DNA from: a virus
Taxonomy: Duplodnaviria; Heunggongvirae; Uroviricota; Caudoviricetes
Virus record (IMG/VR): IMGVR_UViG_2740892232_000008
Coordinates: 1 to 8,873 of that record
Reading direction: 5' to 3' (one strand)
DNA: 8,873 nt
Both the position numbers and the translations under genes were made by a program. This document shows, piece by piece, positions 1 through 7,489 of the stretch; positions within the stretch are counted from its first letter, which is position 1, and every line of letters starts with the position of its first letter. The notes beneath the pieces were generated by a model. The model saw only the letters and a program-made list of their open reading frames with translations, was not told where the DNA came from and made no database searches.

Positions 1-552
1 GCCACTGCCGGAGCCTTCATAAGCAATATCAATGGCCACGGATTCGGTCGGGTTAAACTGCACGCCAGCTCCCCACGCCAGAGACGTGTTGCTGTGGCGA
101 CCGTCATCACTTCCGGTCAGCACGTCGTGCGTTTTCCCCTTGTTGTCAGTTACGCGGAGATAATCCCCGGAGAAAGTCGACACACGGCTGTAAGCCATAC
201 CCGCCATCGCATACGCGCTGAACCATTCATTCACGCGCACAGACGGCCCCGCCATCACGCTGAACCAGCGATTACGCACGGAATCCTCATGCCAGCGGGT
301 ATCGCTGTAATGCGTTTTTTGCTCATCTTCAGCGTTGGCATAACTGAATGACGTAATCAGCCCCAGCGTGTCCGTAAACTCATAACGGTATTTCACGTTA
401 ATCCCGTTCAGATTTTCGCTGCCGGGAGCGTTCGTACGGGCATGAAGATACCCTGCGCTCAGTGTGGCCTGCTGCTCAGACGCCCATGCAGGCGCACCGG
501 ATACGGCCAGACAGATGGCTGCGGACAAAATGGCTGCACAAACTTTACGCAT
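1..552 (-). CDS. lom: Lom outer-membrane beta-barrel protein (Ail/Lom/OmpX family); 3' end runs off the window edge (about 184 codons present)
   Basis: Reverse complement of 481-552 translates MRKVCAAILSAAICLAVSGAPAWA (signal peptide), continuing ...TLSAGYLHARTNAPGSENLNGINVKYRYEFTDTLGL...NRWFSVMAGPSVRVNEWFSAYAMAGMAYSRV..., which matches my recollection of phage lambda Lom. ATG is the complement of 550-552, with a GAGAGG Shine-Dalgarno (complement of about 557-563). It lies directly downstream of J on the same strand, as in lambda. Confidence 0.85.
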   Translation of the reverse strand, partial: MRKVCAAILSAAICLAVSGAPAWASEQQATLSAGYLHARTNAPGSENLNGINVKYRYEFTDTLGLITSFSYANAEDEQKTHYSDTRWHEDSVRNRWFSVMAGPSVRVNEWFSAYAMAGMAYSRVSTFSGDYLRVTDNKGKTHDVLTGSDDGRHSNTSLAWGAGVQFNPTESVAIDIAYEGSGSG

Positions 553-573
553 AATTACCTCTCGCTTTTCTGC

Positions 574-600
574 AATAAAAAAGGCGCCATTTCTGGCGCC
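574..600 (-). terminator. Putative rho-independent terminator between J and lom (read on the minus strand)
   Basis: Self-complementary GGCGCC (583-588) and GGCGCC (595-600) with a 6-nt loop, followed on the minus strand by a T-run (complement of the A-run at 574-582). It sits 20 nt downstream of the J stop codon. Confidence 0.45.
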
Positions 601-619
601 CGTATATGGGTTATAAAAT

Positions 620-3008
620 TCAGCTGATACTGATGCCTGCGGTGGCTTTCTTCATCACCACAACCAGCAAATCGCTGATACTTGCTGTGGGATACCAGTC
701 ATTTACCAGCCATGCTGACACCGAAAACTCCAGCGTCATGTGGCCGTGACCAGCTGGCATATCAATAACACCACTGTAAATCAGCGTATTATCCAGCGCG
801 GTACGGTTATAAATTTCAGCACCATTTTTCTTCACTATCAGGCGGCATGAGGAGTAAATATCAGTATGCTCTCTCTCATGTTTAGCACCGCTGAATGCCA
901 CCGCCGGAATAACAATCTGCCGGTCAAACGGCTGATCGTCATAAATCCTGACGGTAATGGTCCCTGATGGCCACCGCTCCGGTGCCCGGGAGTCCCGCGG
1001 GAAAGCCTTACCCACTGTTTTGACAATATCGCCTTCAATCTGGTTGGCTGACAGTTTCCCTTTAATCTGACAGTTCTCATTTATCGTAACGTTGTTGAGC
1101 GTCCCGGCGTTCGCATTCACACTGCCACTGATATCTGCATTTTTAGCGGTCAGCTTTCCGTCCGGTGTCATGGAAAATGCAGGAGGATTACCGCCGCTGG
1201 TAATGGTGGGAGCCGTCAGATATTTCAGGAACACTTCATTCATGAATATCTGATCACCCTGACCAACAAACATCGGTTTTGTGTTGCCATTTGCAGGATT
1301 AATCATCGCAATCCTGTCTGCCGCCAGCAGCACCTGACTCTGCATGCCGTCGGGGGTGTTCTCAATACCGACACCGATACCCGCAATATAAAGGCGTCCG
1401 TCCTGCATCTGCTGCAGCTTCACAGCCCACATGCTGTTCAGATTATTATTTGTATCAACCTGAACCTTCTGTATCTGCTGAATTGCCGCACTCTGGTCTT
1501 CCAGTTTCTTATTGACGGTCTGCGTGATTTCATTGCTGACATCCTTAATGGACGTCCTGATTTCAGCCAGGTCAGGCGCAAGCTGACCGTTATCAATCTG
1601 CGTCCACAGCTCCTGAGCCAGATGGGTTTTCCCTATCTCGCCTTTGAAAAAATCCAGATAGCCGGATGCATCATCACTCGGCTGACCAACAGCCTCCACG
1701 AATGCCGATTTGCCAACGGTGTTCACACTGCGAACGTAAAAATAATAATCATAGCCCGGCCTGATATTGATACTGGCGGCTATCCAGTACAGCCCCGTGC
1801 CAAGGTAGCGGGCTGTGGTTTCAACCTGCCTGATATCGGTAATCCGCTTTTCCGAGAACCAGAACTCAAACTGTACCGTCGGGTCATAAACGGCAAGATG
1901 CGGCGTGGCGGTTATCTGAAAATAGCCCGGCGTCAGCTCAATCCTCGACGGTGCTGCCGGTGCGGCAATCCGGAACGATACCGACGCCGGATCTCCCTGC
2001 TGCCCCCACGCATTTACCGCCCGGACTGTCAGCCTGTAGTTCCCCAGCGCCAGTTGCGTGAAGCGGTATGTGGTTTCCGTCGTCCGGGCCGTGCTGACCA
2101 GCCGCTCACTGCCGTCGTCCGCTGTTACGGTCAGACGGAGCAGGAAGCTCACGCCCTTCACCACCTTCGGTGTGTCCCAGCGCGCCAGCACCTGATATTC
2201 CCCGCTGTCTGCAGTGACTTCTGCGGTCAGGTGCTGCACCGCTGGCGGCGTGACACCGTTCACCGTGCCACTCTGTTCGCCGTCAAAGTGCGCCCCGTTA
2301 TCCACGATGGCCTCTTTTTCCGGCACATGCTGCACGGCGGTGATGGCATACGTACCGTCATCGTTCTCACGGATACTCACACAGCGGAACAGGCGCTGGC
2401 GCAGCGTCGGCAGCTTCAGCCCCCACACGCTGTATTCGGCAACGCCGTCAGGAACACGGCTCACTTTCACCTTAAGTCCGTCGGTGACGGACTGAACCTC
2501 CACGCTGACCGGATTACCACTTCCGTCAACCAGGCTTATCAGCGTGGTACCGGAGGATGGCAGCGTGATTTCACGGTCGAGCGTCAGCGTCCGGGTCTGG
2601 CTGTTCACCGCCAGCACGCGACCACCGGTGCTGATACCGGCATAGTCATCATCGCAGATTTCAATGACATCGCCCGGTACATGGCGAAGCCCTTCAGCAC
2701 CCACGCTGAAATCCACGGTCTGCGTCTCCAGCAGTTCCGTTTTAATCAGCCACAGCCCGGCGCGGTGTGCCTGCCCCCGGCTGGTACAGCCAAAGGCATC
2801 CATCTTCGTGACATTACGACCGTAACGGGCAATGGCCTGCGTATCTTCAACAAGCTCTGTCGCCGTCTCCCAGCCGTTGTCCGGGTCAATCCAGTTCACC
2901 TCAACGGCATTATGGCGGTCCTTCAGGGCGCTGAAGCTGTAGCGGAACGGCGCGCCATCATCCGGCATCACCACATTACTGCGGTTATAGGTCCACACCT
3001 TATCCGAC
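620..3008 (-). CDS. J: Tail tip host-specificity protein J (lambda gpJ family), C-terminal ~800 codons; 5' end lost at the N10 gap
   Basis: The 807-aa minus-strand ORF reads through the N-run (XXXX in the translation). Sequence such as ...[39 protein letters not shown]...[63 protein letters not shown]... matches lambda J from about residue 330 onward as I recall it. Stop codon TGA is the complement of 620-622. lom follows immediately, as in lambda. Confidence 0.9.
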
Positions 3009-3018
3009 NNNNNNNNNN
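3009..3018. other. Assembly gap or contig-join spacer (10 N)
   Basis: Run of exactly 10 n. Both flanking genes (J on minus, stf on plus) are 5'-truncated at it and face head-to-head. Confidence 0.95.
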
Positions 3019-5069
3019 AAATGGTGGAAGAAGCGGCACGCAACGCTGAAGCCGCCTCTCAGAGCGCAGCGGCGGCAAAGAAATCCGAAACTGCAGCGGC
3101 ATCATCGAAGAACGCGGCGAAAACCTCAGAAACGAATGCAGCTAACAGCGCACAGGCGGCAGCGACCTCACAGACTGCATCGGCAAACTCCGCGACAGCA
3201 GCCAAAAAATCAGAAACCAACGCGAAAAACAGTGAGACAGCCGCAAAGACGAGCGAAACCAACGCAAAGTCCAGCCAGACGGCAGCGAAAACCAGCGAAA
3301 CGAATGCTAAAGCCAGTGAAACTGCGGCAAAAAACAGCCAGGTTGCAGCAGCCCAAAGCGAGAGCGCGGCAGCCGGTTCTGCGACTTCAGCAGCTGGATC
3401 AGCAACTGCTGCGGCTAACAGCCAGAAAGCTGCGAAGACGAGTGAAACTAACGCAAAGTCCAGCCAGACGGCAGCGAAGACCAGCGAAACGAATGCCAAA
3501 GCCAGTGAAACTGCGGCGAAAAGCAGTCAGGATGCAGCGGCCCAAAGCGAGAGTGCCGCAGCCAGTTCTGCAAGCGCGGCGGCTGCTTCTGCCACTGCAT
3601 CAGCTAACAGTCAAAAAGCAGCAAAAACCAGTGAAACCAACGCAAAGGTGAGCGAAACAGCGGCTGCGAACTCAGCGAAAGCATCGGCAGCAAGCCAGAC
3701 GGCAGCTAAAGCAAGCGAAGATGCAGCCAGAGAGTACGCAAGCCAGGCTGCGGAGCCGTATAAATATGTCTTACAGCCGCTGCCTGATGTGTGGATACCA
3801 TTTAACGATTCGCTGGATATGATTACGGGCTTTTCGCCATCATATAAAAAAATTGTTATTGGTGACGATGAAATAACGATGCCTGGCGACAAGATTGTTA
3901 AGTTTAAACGTGCATCGAAAGCAACCTATATTAACAAATCTGGTGTGCTGACAGAGGCTGCCATTGACGAGCCACGATTTGAACGTGATGGCCTGCTTAT
4001 TGAGGGGCAAAGAACAAACTACATGCTCAATTCGGAAAGCCCTGCCAGTTGGGGGCGATCGTCAAATATGGATGTGCCCGAAACAGGGACGGATAATTTT
4101 GGTTTTACCTATGGAAAGTTTGTCTGCAACGATTCTCTGATTGGGCAAACCTCAGCCATTAATATGGCATCAATTGCTGCAACAAAGTCAGTTGATGTCT
4201 CAGGCGATAATAAACACGTGACAACCTCATGTCGTTTTAAAACAGAACTGCAGGTAAGGTTGCGTATCCGGTTTGATAAATATGACGGTAGCGCAACAAC
4301 TTTTCTTGGTGATGCGTATATTGATACACAAACGCTTGAAATTAATATGACAGGCGGTGCTGCCTCAAGGATTACAGCGAGAGTCAGAAAGGACGAAGCT
4401 ACCGGATGGATTTTTGCAGAGGCAACAATTCAGGCAATTGATGGGGAGTTAAAAATAGGCTCTCAGATACAGTATTCTCCTAAGCAGAGCGGGGCAACCG
4501 TATCTGGTGACTATATTTATCTGGCCACCCCACAAGTAGAAGATGGGCCTTGTGTATCATCTTTTATTATATCAGGAGCGACGGCGGCGACCCGCGCAAG
4601 CGATATAGTTACAGTTCCAATTAAGAATAATCTTTATAATCTTCCTTTTACGGTTCTTTGTGAGGTACATAAGAACTGGTATAAAACGCCAAATGCAGCG
4701 CCACGTGTTTTTGATACCGGCGGTCATCAAACCGGAGCGGCTATTATTCTTGGCTTCGGTCGTTCAACAGATTACGACGGATTTCCTTATTGCGATATTG
4801 GAGGAGCTAACAGACGGGTAAACGAAAACGCATCGCTTGAAAAAATGGTTATGGGGATGCGTGTAAAGTCAGAGCAGTCTACGTGCTCAGTAAGTAACGG
4901 GCATATATCCAGCGAAACAAAAACCACATGGTCCTGTATTCAGAACACCGCAATTATCCGTATTGGAGGCCAGACTACAGCCGGGTTACGTCATTTATTT
5001 GGTCATGTCAGGAATTTCAGAATATGGCACAAGGCATTGACTGATGCTCAGGTGGGGGAGTCAATCTAA
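3019..5069 (+). CDS. stf: Side tail fibre protein (lambda Stf-like repeat shaft plus a distinct distal domain); 5' end lost at the gap
   Basis: The frame is open right up to the N-run, so the ATG at 3021 is internal. LMVEEAARNA...AAKKSETAAASS...AAKTSETNAK repeats resemble the lambda Stf region around MVEEVARNAS...AAKTSETNA as I recall it. The distal ~430 aa are non-repetitive and end ...IRIGGQTTAGLRHLFGHVRNFRIWHKALTDAQVGESI. Stop TAA at 5067-5069. Confidence 0.85.
3261..3638 (+). repeat. Two full 189-bp (63-codon) in-frame tandem repeat units inside stf, with degenerate partial copies on both sides (about 3070-3700)
   Basis: The string aacgcaaagtccagccagacggcagcgaa starts at 3261 and again at 3450 (offset 189). 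The units encode NAKSSQTAAKTSETNAKASETAAK(N/S)SQ(V/D)AAAQSESAAA...ANSQKAAKTSET with only a few substitutions. Confidence 0.85.
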
Positions 5070-5350
5070 TGAAAGATTTAACACTCAAATTTGAAGACAG
5101 GGCCGACTTTTCGGCCTTTATGGATAGCACTGGCTATTATGATGACGAGTCGATGCAGGATGATATTCTTATCGACGTGATAGGTAACGTGTACAAAGAA
5201 ACCGGAGAACTGACTGAAGATGGCGAACCGGTATGTGTTAAGGAAGACGGATATTTTGTAAACGTGCGCATCATTAATGATTCGCAAATATCGTCATTAT
5301 TCGATGAATACGTGGTTGCTGTTGAGCATCAACTTCGTGGCTGGATGTGA
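5069..5350 (+). CDS. Small acidic cytoplasmic protein (93 aa), translationally coupled to stf; function unknown, candidate fibre-tip assembly partner
   Basis: ATG at 5069 overlaps the stf stop (TAATG) and follows a GGGGAG Shine-Dalgarno. The product is Asp/Glu-rich. A paralog sits at the equivalent position after the second fibre-tip copy (7202-7480), sharing DGEP and EGYFVN(V/I)R motifs. Confidence 0.6.
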   Translation: MKDLTLKFEDRADFSAFMDSTGYYDDESMQDDILIDVIGNVYKETGELTEDGEPVCVKEDGYFVNVRIINDSQISSLFDEYVVAVEHQLRGWM

Positions 5351-5359
5351 GGAAGAAAA

Positions 5360-6400
5360 ATGGCTACATCGACAGTAATTCCTGATGACATCAAAACGCT
5401 AAAATCCGACGTTAGCAAATTAAAAAACGATCAAGGAAGCTACGCAACAAAATTATATGTAGACAGCAAAGATGAAATCGTTGGTGACTGGTCTGCTTCA
5501 TGGTATCAGCAGGTATTGCCAACTAGCGGAGCTATATTTGGGAGAAAACTCCGCTCAACTCACAGGACGGCAGGTGTTGAGGATGCGTATTGCGAACTAT
5601 ACCTCAAAAAATGGATAGACAGTCCAGGTAACGCAATGGCGCGCCTTAACCTGAACGATAACGGGACAAACATTTGCTGGGACTTTACCAACCTTTATGG
5701 CGGTACGATGATTTTTCCCGGTGACAGCGGATACCTCAAAATGGGTAACTGCCTTATGTCATACAGCAAGCGTGGAAGTAACGCGCTTATTAAATTTGAT
5801 TACACCGACACATTACAGATCAAATATGCCAATCATGGGTCAACCATGACATTAAACACACAGGGAACCGCTTATGCTGGTGTTACTGCTCAATTGTGGG
5901 GCAACTCCAGCCGTCCTGTTGTTTATGAAGTCGGTGTTGATGGTGGCGCTTATATGTTCTATGCGCAGAAAAATACCGATAACACCTATATGTTAAGCGT
6001 TAATGGTGCATGTCATGCCACCGCATTTAACCAGCATTCCGACCGGGATCTGAAAGACAACATTCAGGTGATCGATAATGCAACCGACCGCATCCGTAAA
6101 ATGAACGGCTATACATACACGCTTAAAGAAAACGGTATGCCCTATGCTGGTGTCATTGCACAGGAAGCTCTGGAAGCAATCCCAGAAGTTGTAGGTTCCG
6201 CAATGAAATATCAGGACGGTGCGAGCGGATCGGAAGGTGAAGAAGGTGAACGTTATTACACAGTAGATTATTCTGGTGTTACTGGCTTGCTTGTTCAGGT
6301 AGCCAGAGAGTCAGACGACAGAATAACAGCACTGGAAGAAGAAAACGCAGAATTAAGACAAAGATTATCTGCAATTGAGGCGGCGCTTGCGTCTAAATAA
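5360..6400 (+). CDS. Short tail-fibre or tail-spike-like protein with a C-terminal intramolecular chaperone (peptidase S74-type) autoprocessing domain
   Basis: AGGAAG Shine-Dalgarno 9 nt after the upstream stop. The C-terminal ~120 aa read HS-DRDLKDNIQVID...GVIAQEALEAIPEVV...YTVDYSGVTGLLVQVARE...ITALEEENAELRQRL, matching the SD(R)xLKxNI / IAQE..E..PE.V / VDYS...LL / coiled-coil pattern of endosialidase and T5 pb1-type chaperone domains. Stop TAA at 6398-6400. Confidence 0.75.
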   Translation: MATSTVIPDDIKTLKSDVSKLKNDQGSYATKLYVDSKDEIVGDWSASWYQQVLPTSGAIFGRKLRSTHRTAGVEDAYCELYLKKWIDSPGNAMARLNLNDNGTNICWDFTNLYGGTMIFPGDSGYLKMGNCLMSYSKRGSNALIKFDYTDTLQIKYANHGSTMTLNTQGTAYAGVTAQLWGNSSRPVVYEVGVDGGAYMFYAQKNTDNTYMLSVNGACHATAFNQHSDRDLKDNIQVIDNATDRIRKMNGYTYTLKENGMPYAGVIAQEALEAIPEVVGSAMKYQDGASGSEGEEGERYYTVDYSGVTGLLVQVARESDDRITALEEENAELRQRLSAIEAALASK

Positions 6401-6406
6401 TATTAA

Positions 6407-6429
6407 GGGGCCGAGCGCCCCGTTTTATT
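6407..6429 (+). terminator. Putative rho-independent terminator after the S74-domain gene
   Basis: GGGGC (6407-6411), loop CGAGC, GCCCC (6417-6421), followed by GTTTTATT. Confidence 0.5.
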
Positions 6430-6442
6430 GGGTAGGATGAAA

Positions 6443-6736
6443 ATGGATATAACACCTTTCCTTCATGCGCTTTGTGCTGTGGCTGCGCAGCTACTGATTG
6501 GTCTTTTTACCGGGAACTGGGCTTACGGGGCGATAGCCGGTTGTACGTTCTTCATTGCGCGTGAACACACCCAGGCAGAATATCGCTGGATCGAAATGTT
6601 CGGGCATGGCAAGCGAATGAATATGCCGTGGTGGGGCGGTTTTGATACACGTGCATGGGATGTGGCAAGCCTGATGGATTTTGCTGTGCCGGTGGTGGCG
6701 TGTCTGCTGGTCTGGCTGTTGGTTAATCGTGGGTGA
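6443..6736 (+). CDS. Small integral membrane protein (~97 aa, two predicted transmembrane helices); function unknown
   Basis: The ORF track starts at a TTG (6428). I prefer the ATG at 6443, which has an AGGA Shine-Dalgarno and aligns with the start of the paralog at 7490 (MDITP...). Hydrophobic N- and C-terminal segments flank a conserved loop AREHTQAEYRWI...MPWWGGFD...AWDVASLMDF.VPVVAC shared by both copies. Confidence 0.6.
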   Translation: MDITPFLHALCAVAAQLLIGLFTGNWAYGAIAGCTFFIAREHTQAEYRWIEMFGHGKRMNMPWWGGFDTRAWDVASLMDFAVPVVACLLVWLLVNRG

Positions 6737-6746
6737 AAAAAGGTGA

Positions 6747-6875
6747 GCTGTATATGCAACGGAGGAAGAAACCCCGTTGCTGGAAGCCTGGAAAAAGTAT
6801 CGGATGCTGCTGAACCGTGTTGATACATCAACTGCACCTGATATTGAGTGGCCTACGAACCCTGTCAGGGAGTAA
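6747..6875 (+). pseudogene. tfa: 3'-terminal remnant of a tail fibre assembly (tfa) gene with no start codon or N-terminal part
   Basis: The frame opens at 6747 after an in-frame TGA and encodes ...[37 protein letters not shown], the conserved C-terminal signature of lambda, Mu and P2-type Tfa/U chaperones as I recall it. There is no ATG or Shine-Dalgarno in frame upstream. Confidence 0.55.
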
Positions 6876-6879
6876 TCAT

Positions 6880-6889
6880 NNNNNNNNNN
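6880..6889. other. Assembly gap or contig-join spacer (10 N)
   Basis: Run of exactly 10 n. The downstream ORF is open to the gap, so it is 5'-truncated. Confidence 0.95.
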
Positions 6890-6890
6890 A

Positions 6891-7205
6891 TCTTCGGCAG
6901 ATGGGCCAGACGGATTTCCTTATTGCGATATTGGTGGATCAAATAGGCGTGTTAACGAAAACGCATCGTTGAAAAAAATGGTTATGGGGATGCGTGTAAA
7001 GTCAGATCAGTCTACATGTGCAGTAAGTAACGGGCGTATATCCAGCGAAACAAAAACCACATGGGAATATATCCGGAGTACAGCAACCATTCGCATTGGT
7101 GGACAAACTACAGCAGGATTACGCCATTTATTTGGGCATGTGAGGAATTTTCGTCTCTGGCATAAAGAGCTAACAGATGCGCAGCTTGGGGAGGTTGTGG
7201 AGTGA
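6891..7205 (+). CDS. stf: Second, diverged copy of the side-tail-fibre C-terminal (LamG-like) tip; 5' end lost at the gap
   Basis: In-frame translation from 6891 reads SSADGPDGFPYCDIGGSNRRVNENASLKKMVMGMRVKSDQSTCAVSNGRISSETKTTW...IRIGGQTTAGLRHLFGHVRNFRLWHKELTDAQLGEVVE*. By eye it is roughly 80 percent identical in protein to 4780-5069. The 78-aa ORF at 6969-7205 in the track is only its tail. Confidence 0.75.
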   Translation, partial: SSADGPDGFPYCDIGGSNRRVNENASLKKMVMGMRVKSDQSTCAVSNGRISSETKTTWEYIRSTATIRIGGQTTAGLRHLFGHVRNFRLWHKELTDAQLGEVVE

Positions 7206-7480
7206 GAGATTTCACGTTGCGTTTCAGTGATAAAGCAGATTTCAGGGCATTTCTCAGGAAACTTAACTGGGAAGAGGACGAAGAGCTGCAGAATGCCGTT
7301 CTGGTTGATGAGATTGGTTTTACGTTCAGTGAGTCAGGTGTTTCTGCTGACGGGGAGCCTGAATACACGCGAGACGAAGGGTACTTTGTTAATATTCGTC
7401 TTCTTGACGATGGCTTTGATGAATCCGTGTTCCGTGAGTGGGTGGTTACACCAGAGCGCCCGCTCAGGGAGTGGTTTTAA
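7202..7480 (+). CDS. Small acidic protein (92 aa), paralog of the 5069-5350 product
   Basis: GTG start overlaps the fibre stop (GTGA at 7202-7205) after a GGGGAG Shine-Dalgarno, the same coupling geometry as the first copy. It shares D(R/K)ADF, DGEP and EGYFVN(I/V)R motifs with the first copy. Confidence 0.6.
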   Translation: MRDFTLRFSDKADFRAFLRKLNWEEDEELQNAVLVDEIGFTFSESGVSADGEPEYTRDEGYFVNIRLLDDGFDESVFREWVVTPERPLREWF

Positions 7481-7489
7481 GGGGAGCAG

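Follow-up and report, generated by a model that had tools for sequence, protein, structure and literature searches.

The window analyzed here, a stretch of 8,873 nt of DNA, shows a gene order across its two runs of Ns that is an assembly artifact, not biology. The runs, at positions 3009–3018 and 6880–6889, are the only non-ACGT characters in the window and divide it into three blocks, at 1–3008, 3019–6879, and 6890–8873. In no finished genome do the sequences on the two sides of a run adjoin, and the contigs end within repeats. The contigs broke at repeated DNA and were joined by placeholders; therefore, the order read across the Ns is artifactual. The window is almost certainly part of a draft or concatenated record from Escherichia coli, or a very close relative, with at least two lambdoid prophages, in which contigs broken by repeats were joined by 10-N placeholders.

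Layout of the window and its gaps

Each N-run is exactly 10 nt long, a point in the original prediction that is borne out by direct reading of the window. This is a fixed, conventional length and not a measured gap size, as in an assembly gap, and some bacterial assemblers insert an artificial gap of 10 Ns. Literature on '10 Ns' conventions provided general examples (splitting of sequence at >10 Ns; 10 Ns placed after unresolved cycles, by another assembler), none specific to this record. Both runs are 10-N placeholder gaps, and neither junction is biological.

Block 1 (1–3008, minus strand) contains lom (1–552, minus strand), which is cut by the window edge, and the 3′ 2,389 nt of the tail-tip gene J (620–3008, minus strand), the 5′ end of which (nt 1–1091) is missing at the gap. 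The truncation of J is apparent in its Pfam Phage-tail_3 match, which begins at profile position 36, and the Ig_J, Ig_J_second, Phage_Tail_Tip, and Ig_GpJ_C domains are found in the part that is present. Open reading frame (ORF) callers can run through Ns, and ORF calling through the Ns here gives an 807-amino-acid 'J' frame at 620–3043, the first codons of which come from block 2 and are followed by four X residues.

Block 2 (3019–6879, plus strand) is complete between the gaps. It starts with stf, without the first 325 nt of the gene (3019–5069; PHROG 1419 profile positions 109–793 of 793), and continues on the same strand with a 93-amino-acid gene (5069–5350), a 346-amino-acid fiber gene with a Peptidase_S74 chaperone domain (5360–6400), a 102-amino-acid gene (6428–6736), and a tfa remnant of 39 codons (6756–6875) with a TAA stop at 6873–6875. 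The block ends 4 nt past this stop, and finished genomes annotate the 39-codon remnant as the same N-terminally truncated pseudogene. Block 3 (6890–8873, plus strand) carries a second stf of which the final 104 codons are present (6891–7205, plus strand), two small genes of 92 and 98 amino acids (7202–7480 and 7490–7786, both plus strand), a ykgJ-family gene (7801–8235, minus strand), and a VapA/VapB-family gene (8421–8873, plus strand). The second fiber tip has 82 of 97 residues identical to residues 586–682 of the stf product in block 2.

The original prediction described J (minus strand) and stf (plus strand) as meeting head-to-head at 3009–3018 with both 5′ ends missing, and a second fiber tip as starting mid-gene after 6880–6889. 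Both descriptions hold: J is present from nt 1092 to 3480 and stf from nt 326, and the second tip amounts to 104 codons at PHROG 1419 positions 691–793. The broader claim that both N-runs interrupt genes is correct for the two sides of the first run and the right side of the second, and incorrect for the left side of the second. By comparison with finished genomes, the sequence missing at the first gap comprises at least 1,091 nt on the J side and at least 325 nt on the stf side.

Counterparts of the blocks in finished genomes

Each block has an uninterrupted, near-identical counterpart in a finished genome, and beyond the block ends the sequence of that genome differs from the window. The counterparts sit at three chromosomal loci: near ompT/nfrA, near sitABCD, and near ompW/trp. 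Across all 3,008 nt, block 1 matches E. coli EC28 (NZ_CP049101.1), along with four further complete genomes, at 100% identity. In EC28, the sequence passes from the equivalent of window position 3008 into more J (15009 onward), not stf, and J runs on upstream into tail genes beyond the block 1 end. Block 2 is 99.95% identical over 3,861 nt to KK19-02 (NZ_CM144238.1), in which stf nt 1–325, lom, and J precede the counterpart of the block on the same strand and sitDCBA comes after it. Past window position 6879, KK19-02 reads TGGGATTATGCC... and then sitD, with no stf tip. Block 3 is 97.5–100% identical to CEA106S and 97.9% identical to CE10, genomes in which its counterpart belongs to prophages at the ompW/trp locus; over its first 500 nt, it matches the stf tip of EC28 at 98.4% identity.

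These continuations bear directly on whether the N-runs could be 10-base masks, arising from database masking or low-quality base calls, that cover continuous sequence with a real gene order. Some collections do mask short stretches as N, but masking predicts that the flanks should lie 10 nt apart in close relatives. The genome identical to block 1 and the genome nearly identical to block 2 both continue into other sequence at the Ns, refuting the masking explanation, to which we assign next to no probability.

The arrangement in the window was also sought in 5,426 complete E. coli genomes. No place in these genomes covers ≥80% of the window, none of the 5,426 has both 500-nt flanks of junction 1 together, and none has both 100-nt flanks of junction 2 within 600 nt; a pattern spanning gap 1 had no match in genome contigs. 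When 500-nt flanks were used for junction 2, 253 genomes appeared to match. Local BLAST showed these matches to be circularly permuted, with the left flank lying downstream of the right one, and the normal order behind them is stf tip, small genes, and then the tfa remnant. The flanks are not adjacent in finished close relatives, as is expected for an assembly gap.

All of the finished contexts inspected have J, lom, and stf running in one direction, as the original prediction stated for lambda. The co-directional and contiguous J, lom, and stf of a lambdoid locus are found in the finished genomes and not in the window. Because the genes are co-directional in finished genomes and not in the window, it is the layout of the window that is the anomaly.

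The opposite orientations of J and stf at junction 1, along with the presence in the window of two alternative fiber-tip cassettes and a tfa fragment, could instead be explained if block 2 were a site-specific invertible tail-fiber segment of the Mu G, P1 C, or e14 P kind (Gin/Cin/Pin). This explanation, which we rejected and which has a vanishingly small probability, is already contradicted by several features. The two stf tips share an orientation (plus strand), whereas those of an invertible segment would be opposed. No inverted repeats flank block 2, with the longest pairs in the window being 16–20 nt at 80–89% identity and the 20-nt pair at 80%. Neither an ORF nor a Pfam match in the window corresponds to the recombinase or serine invertase expected with an invertible segment, and in KK19-02 the entire block 2 is collinear with J, lom, and the 5′ end of stf. 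Further, inversion of a segment would not delete the 5′ 1,091 nt of J.

Repeated sequence at the block ends

The DNA just beyond the block ends is multi-copy within single genomes, with medians of 2–3 places and up to 14. The 500 nt just past the block 1 end are found at a median of 3 places per genome (maximum 14), and the junction-2 flanks at a median of 2 places per genome. As at assembly gaps, repeated sequence is present where the contigs end, with the start of block 2 lacking an exact-run signature. The final 129 nt of block 1 (2880–3008, minus strand) are part of an exact run of 194–206 nt (J nt 1015/1027–1220) that is common to the J alleles of different prophages: the J gene of EC28 is identical to that of KK19-02 over nt 1015–1220 and to that of CEA106S over nt 1027–1220, and block 1 ends at J nt 1092. 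At the end of block 2, positions 6809–6879 (plus strand) lie within a run of ~87 nt in the tfa remnant that is shared by several prophages. In an alignment of KK19-02, the two EC28 copies, and AF14, this run continues 16 nt beyond the block 2 end (TGGGATTATGCCGCAG) and then diverges. Five loci, none of which has Ns, match the final 34 nt of block 2. At the block 2 start (stf nt 326), comparison with the available alleles revealed a divergent triplet and no exact-repeat boundary.

In each of three independent finished genomes, a 140-nt exact repeat ends immediately before the base at which block 3 begins. The copy of this repeat in the stf of block 2 (4620–4759, plus strand) is identical to the DNA directly before the block-3-type fiber tip in finished genomes, and is therefore the repeat where contig 3 broke. 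Among the exact matches of block 2 to the stf genes of EC28 and AF14, it is the longest (stf nt 1606–1745), with block 3 starting at nt 1746, and in CEA106S the same 140-mer at 7861–8000 adjoins the match to block 3, which begins at 8001. Outside this island of perfect identity, the stf genes are 75–82% identical. The island may mark a conserved crossover at which co-resident prophages exchange receptor-binding fiber tips and the partner genes of PHROG 1361 and PHROG 1443 that accompany them, a milder proposal that is more likely than a real breakpoint at one of the junctions.

Terminal overlaps between the blocks were looked for and none were found. The length of repeat retained at contig ends was considered as an indicator of k-mer size, but block 1 keeps 129 nt of repeat and block 3 keeps 0 nt; these values disagree and therefore point to no particular assembler. 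Together, the finished-genome contexts, the absence of the junctions from complete genomes, and the repeats at contig ends support the original proposal that contigs broke in repeated prophage tail genes and were then joined.

The shared stretches also raise the question of whether one or both junctions could be a real rearrangement, an inversion or deletion caused by recombination between co-resident prophages, with the Ns standing for a short unsequenceable stretch. E. coli genomes undergo prophage-mediated inversions, and where lambdoid prophages reside together, their tail genes have long stretches of exact identity in common (140 nt in stf and about 200 nt in J) that could support recombination. 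However, homologous recombination would pair J with J or stf with stf in register, whereas junction 1 connects the middle of J (nt 1092) head-to-head with stf nt 326, with no homology between its flanks, and junction 2 connects the base 4 nt past the tfa stop with a point inside an stf codon series. Either rearranged junction would destroy the genes involved, both are absent from the 5,426 complete genomes, and the end positions match repeat boundaries, as assembly breaks should. The probability of such a rearrangement is very slight. That one junction is a real breakpoint from illegitimate recombination between two resident lambdoid prophages, with the Ns hiding a short stretch, has a slight probability.

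Contig joining, consequences, and known systems

In the assembly artifact that we favor, stretches that are identical between the J, stf, and tfa tail genes of different prophages would have been impassable to the assembler, presumably one of the short-read type, which would therefore have produced separate contigs ending at or inside repeats. The three contigs would then have been linked by fixed 10-N placeholders, with the Ns representing neither real bases nor an estimate of gap size. We infer the real arrangement in the source strain from its relatives, with no complete genome matching all three blocks at 100%. The true neighbor of block 1 would be the 5′ 1,091 nt of J, followed by tail genes. 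Block 2 would have stf nt 1–325, lom, and J ahead of it on the same strand and a prophage/chromosome boundary after it (sitD in KK19-02). Block 3 would be preceded by the 5′ ~1.7 kb of the second stf, the last 140 nt of which would be identical to window positions 4620–4759. All three blocks are pieces of tail-fiber regions, and blocks 2 and 3 have the same orientation, so the contigs may have been put in an order that is not entirely arbitrary, perhaps by a scaffolder or through reference-guided ordering.

The importance of the artifact is for quality control only. Gene order, operon structure, and prophage boundaries cannot be read across 3009–3018 or 6880–6889, and the window provides no evidence for a head-to-head arrangement of J and stf, or for two tandem fiber-tip cassettes in one prophage. 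Counts of prophages or tail-fiber genes from the record are unreliable because shared segments are collapsed.

The window resembles the gaps that scaffolding or concatenation leaves in draft bacterial assemblies, with the same fixed N length, non-contiguous flanks, and contig ends at or inside prophage repeats, and it differs from them in nothing of kind. All three blocks are pieces of the lambdoid J-lom-stf-tfa region known from phage lambda and E. coli cryptic prophages. In contrast to that region, stf in these prophages is followed by small genes of PHROG 1361 and PHROG 1443 and a 39-codon tfa remnant without a full tfa, and block 2 has an extra Peptidase_S74 fiber gene. The likeness to the invertible segments of Mu (G), P1 (C), and e14 (P) consists of alternative fiber C termini and tfa-related sequence close together; in contrast to those systems, the window has no invertase and no flanking inverted repeats, its tips are co-oriented, and its finished counterpart is collinear.

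Three blocks and their finished relatives

The window contains two N-runs, each exactly 10 nt long, at 3009-3018 (gap 1) and 6880-6889 (gap 2); the original prediction had described them in this way, and direct reading bears it out. Its 8,873 nt include no other ambiguous character. The runs delimit block 1 (1-3008, G+C 54.9%), block 2 (3019-6879, 47.3%) and block 3 (6890-8873, 44.4%). On the minus strand, block 1 encodes lom, truncated at the window edge, and nucleotides 1092-3480 only of the tail-tip gene J, with the Pfam domains Ig_J, Ig_J_second, Phage_Tail_Tip and Ig_GpJ_C and an N-terminally truncated Phage-tail_3 domain. On the plus strand, block 2 carries the side tail fibre gene stf without its first 325 nt (PHROG 1419 profile positions 109-793 of 793), a 93-aa gene (5069-5350, PHROG 1361), a 346-aa tail-fibre gene with a C-terminal Peptidase_S74 intramolecular-chaperone domain (5360-6400, PHROG 4563), a 102-aa gene (6428-6736, PHROG 1443) and what is left of the tail-fibre assembly gene tfa, 39 codons that match positions 95-130 of the 131 in the Caudo_TAP profile. 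Block 3 starts with the 3'-terminal 104 codons of another stf gene (PHROG 1419 positions 691-793; identical at 82/97 positions to residues 586-682 of the stf protein in block 2), followed by a 92-aa paralogue of the 93-aa gene (7202-7480, PHROG 1361), a 98-aa paralogue of the 102-aa gene (7490-7786, PHROG 1443), a minus-strand YkgJ-family gene encoding a CxxCxxCC protein (7801-8235) and a plus-strand Rhodococcus equi Vap-family gene (8421-8873; Pfam R_equi_Vir, E = 5e-34).

J and stf do meet head-to-head at gap 1, both lacking their 5' ends, and a second fibre tip does begin mid-gene to the right of gap 2, as had been predicted. The further claim that both N-runs interrupt genes holds at gap 1 and to the right of gap 2, but not to its left, where the tfa remnant has its TAA stop at 6873-6875 and block 2 runs on for only 4 nt more; no gene is cut there, because finished genomes carry the remnant in the same truncated form. 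Mechanical ORF calling yielded a chimeric 807-aa J ORF at 620-3043 (-), with a TTG start inside block 2 and four X residues, and a spurious antisense ORF of 475 aa at 1622-3049 (+) that crosses gap 1.

Block 1 is 100% identical over 3,008 nt to Escherichia coli EC28 (NZ_CP049101.1) and four other complete genomes. The EC28 prophage lies near ompT/nfrA and continues beyond the block with 1,091 nt more of J upstream and then tail genes I, K, L, M and H. Block 2 matches KK19-02 (NZ_CM144238.1) at 99.95% over 3,861 nt; there it is preceded by stf nucleotides 1-325, lom and J, all co-directional, and followed after ~200 nt by sitDCBA. Block 3 matches CEA106S (97.5-100%) and CE10 (97.9%), in prophages that adjoin ompW/trp and carry the stf body, lom and J before it, again co-directional. 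In their best-matching finished genomes, the three blocks thus occupy three different prophage contexts. In 5/5 finished contexts inspected, J, lom and stf are co-directional.

Fibre-tip cassettes and downstream genes

Two small genes without a known function follow each stf tip, one from PHROG 1361 (39/92 residues identical between the two paralogues) and one, hydrophobic-looking, from PHROG 1443 (65/87 identical). The Peptidase_S74 fibre gene sits between the two small genes in block 2 only, and is missing from the block 3-type cassette. The only tfa sequence beside these cassettes is the 39-codon remnant, and the small genes may stand in for tfa as partner or chaperone of the fibre.

The YkgJ-family and Vap-family genes, the latter annotated as VapA/VapB family in CE10 and CEA106S, come just after the tail-fibre genes of block 3, on the prophage's ompW side. 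Neither has a PHROG match, and their position suggests that they are prophage cargo. In CEA106S (locus L010, 9452-10371), an IS1 element and an M20-family hydrolase gene fragment separate the two; this insertion is absent from the window (~8285-8420) and from CE10.

Junctions in complete genomes

Among 5,426 complete E. coli genomes, none has a single place covering 80% of the window, and none matches both 500-nt flanks of gap 1 together. With 500 nt from each side of gap 2, 253 genomes matched, but local BLAST placed the right flank upstream of the left in these records (6001-6500 before 6591-7037 in locus L004, from a further finished genome; 10143-9644 before 9553-9108 in L002, the EC28 locus), and we rejected them as support. 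The order behind these circularly permuted matches is the normal one, in which the stf tip is followed by the small genes and then by the tfa remnant. With 100 nt from each side and the Ns removed, both flanks of gap 2 lay within 600 nt of each other in 0/5,426 genomes.

A real rearrangement in the source strain is unlikely: neither junction occurs in any finished genome, either would wreck genes, and recombination between prophages would join homologues in register, whereas these flanks share no homology. The possibility that a 10-base mask was laid on continuous sequence is refuted, since the sequence that follows each end in the 100% and 99.95% identical relatives is a different one. A Gin/Cin/Pin-type invertible fibre segment is contradicted by the shared orientation of both fibre tips and the collinear finished counterpart, and neither an invertase nor a flanking inverted repeat was found.

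Repeats at contig ends and the likely assembly history

The window is almost certainly three draft-assembly contigs from a strain of E. coli, or a very near relative, that carries two or more lambdoid prophages; the contigs broke at sequence shared between the prophages' tail genes and were joined by fixed 10-N placeholders. Block 2 shares no exact run longer than 140 nt with the EC28-type/AF14-type stf; this run spans window 4620-4759 (stf nucleotides 1606-1745). Block 3 begins at nucleotide 1746 of that stf, the first base of divergence between the two genes. CEA106S carries the same 140-mer at L010 7861-8000, with its block 3 match running from 8001. The stf gene owning block 3 therefore has a perfect 140-nt repeat in common with block 2; this repeat is what broke the assembly, and the block 3 start is a base-precise repeat-fork signature. 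The island (also L002 10283-10144 and L004 5861-6000) sits just before the variable C-terminal tip in stf genes otherwise ~75-82% identical, and resembles a conserved crossover point at which prophages might exchange fibre tips.

Block 1 ends at J nucleotide 1092, within an exact run common to the EC28-type J and the J upstream of block 2-type and block 3-type fibres (1015-1220 against KK19-02, 1027-1220 against CEA106S). Block 2 ends within a ~87-nt run common to the tfa remnants of several prophages, which goes 16 nt beyond the block before diverging. At the block 2 start (stf nucleotide 326), the alleles compared gave no repeat signature, only a divergent triplet, GAGGAAATG versus GAGCTGATG. 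Per genome, sequence just beyond block 1 occurs at a median of 3 places and that just before block 2 at a median of 2, each with a maximum of 14. The Ala/Ser/Thr-rich N-terminal stf shaft holds a 189-nt tandem repeat at 3228-3647 (+) (2.2 copies, 83% matches; sub-periods of 42 and 21 nt with KTSETNAK-type motifs), a further source of assembly ambiguity.

The comparisons thus show directly that the flanks are non-contiguous and that the contig ends bear repeat signatures, in agreement with the original prediction of contigs broken in repeated prophage tail genes and then joined. The type of assembler and the contig-ordering rule we infer. Because all three pieces derive from tail-fibre regions and the orientation is the same in blocks 2 and 3, their placement may reflect read-pair links through the shared repeat, reference-guided ordering or concatenation of similar-sized small contigs. 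The gene order across both gaps is a matter of quality control and not a biological feature; it was correctly flagged. No gene order should be inferred through the Ns, and ORF callers can fuse genes through them. J, lom, stf body, 140-nt repeat and block 3 is a plausible true arrangement: EC28 matches block 1 at 100% identity, and the first 500 nt of block 3 share 98.4% identity with the stf tip lying downstream of its lom.
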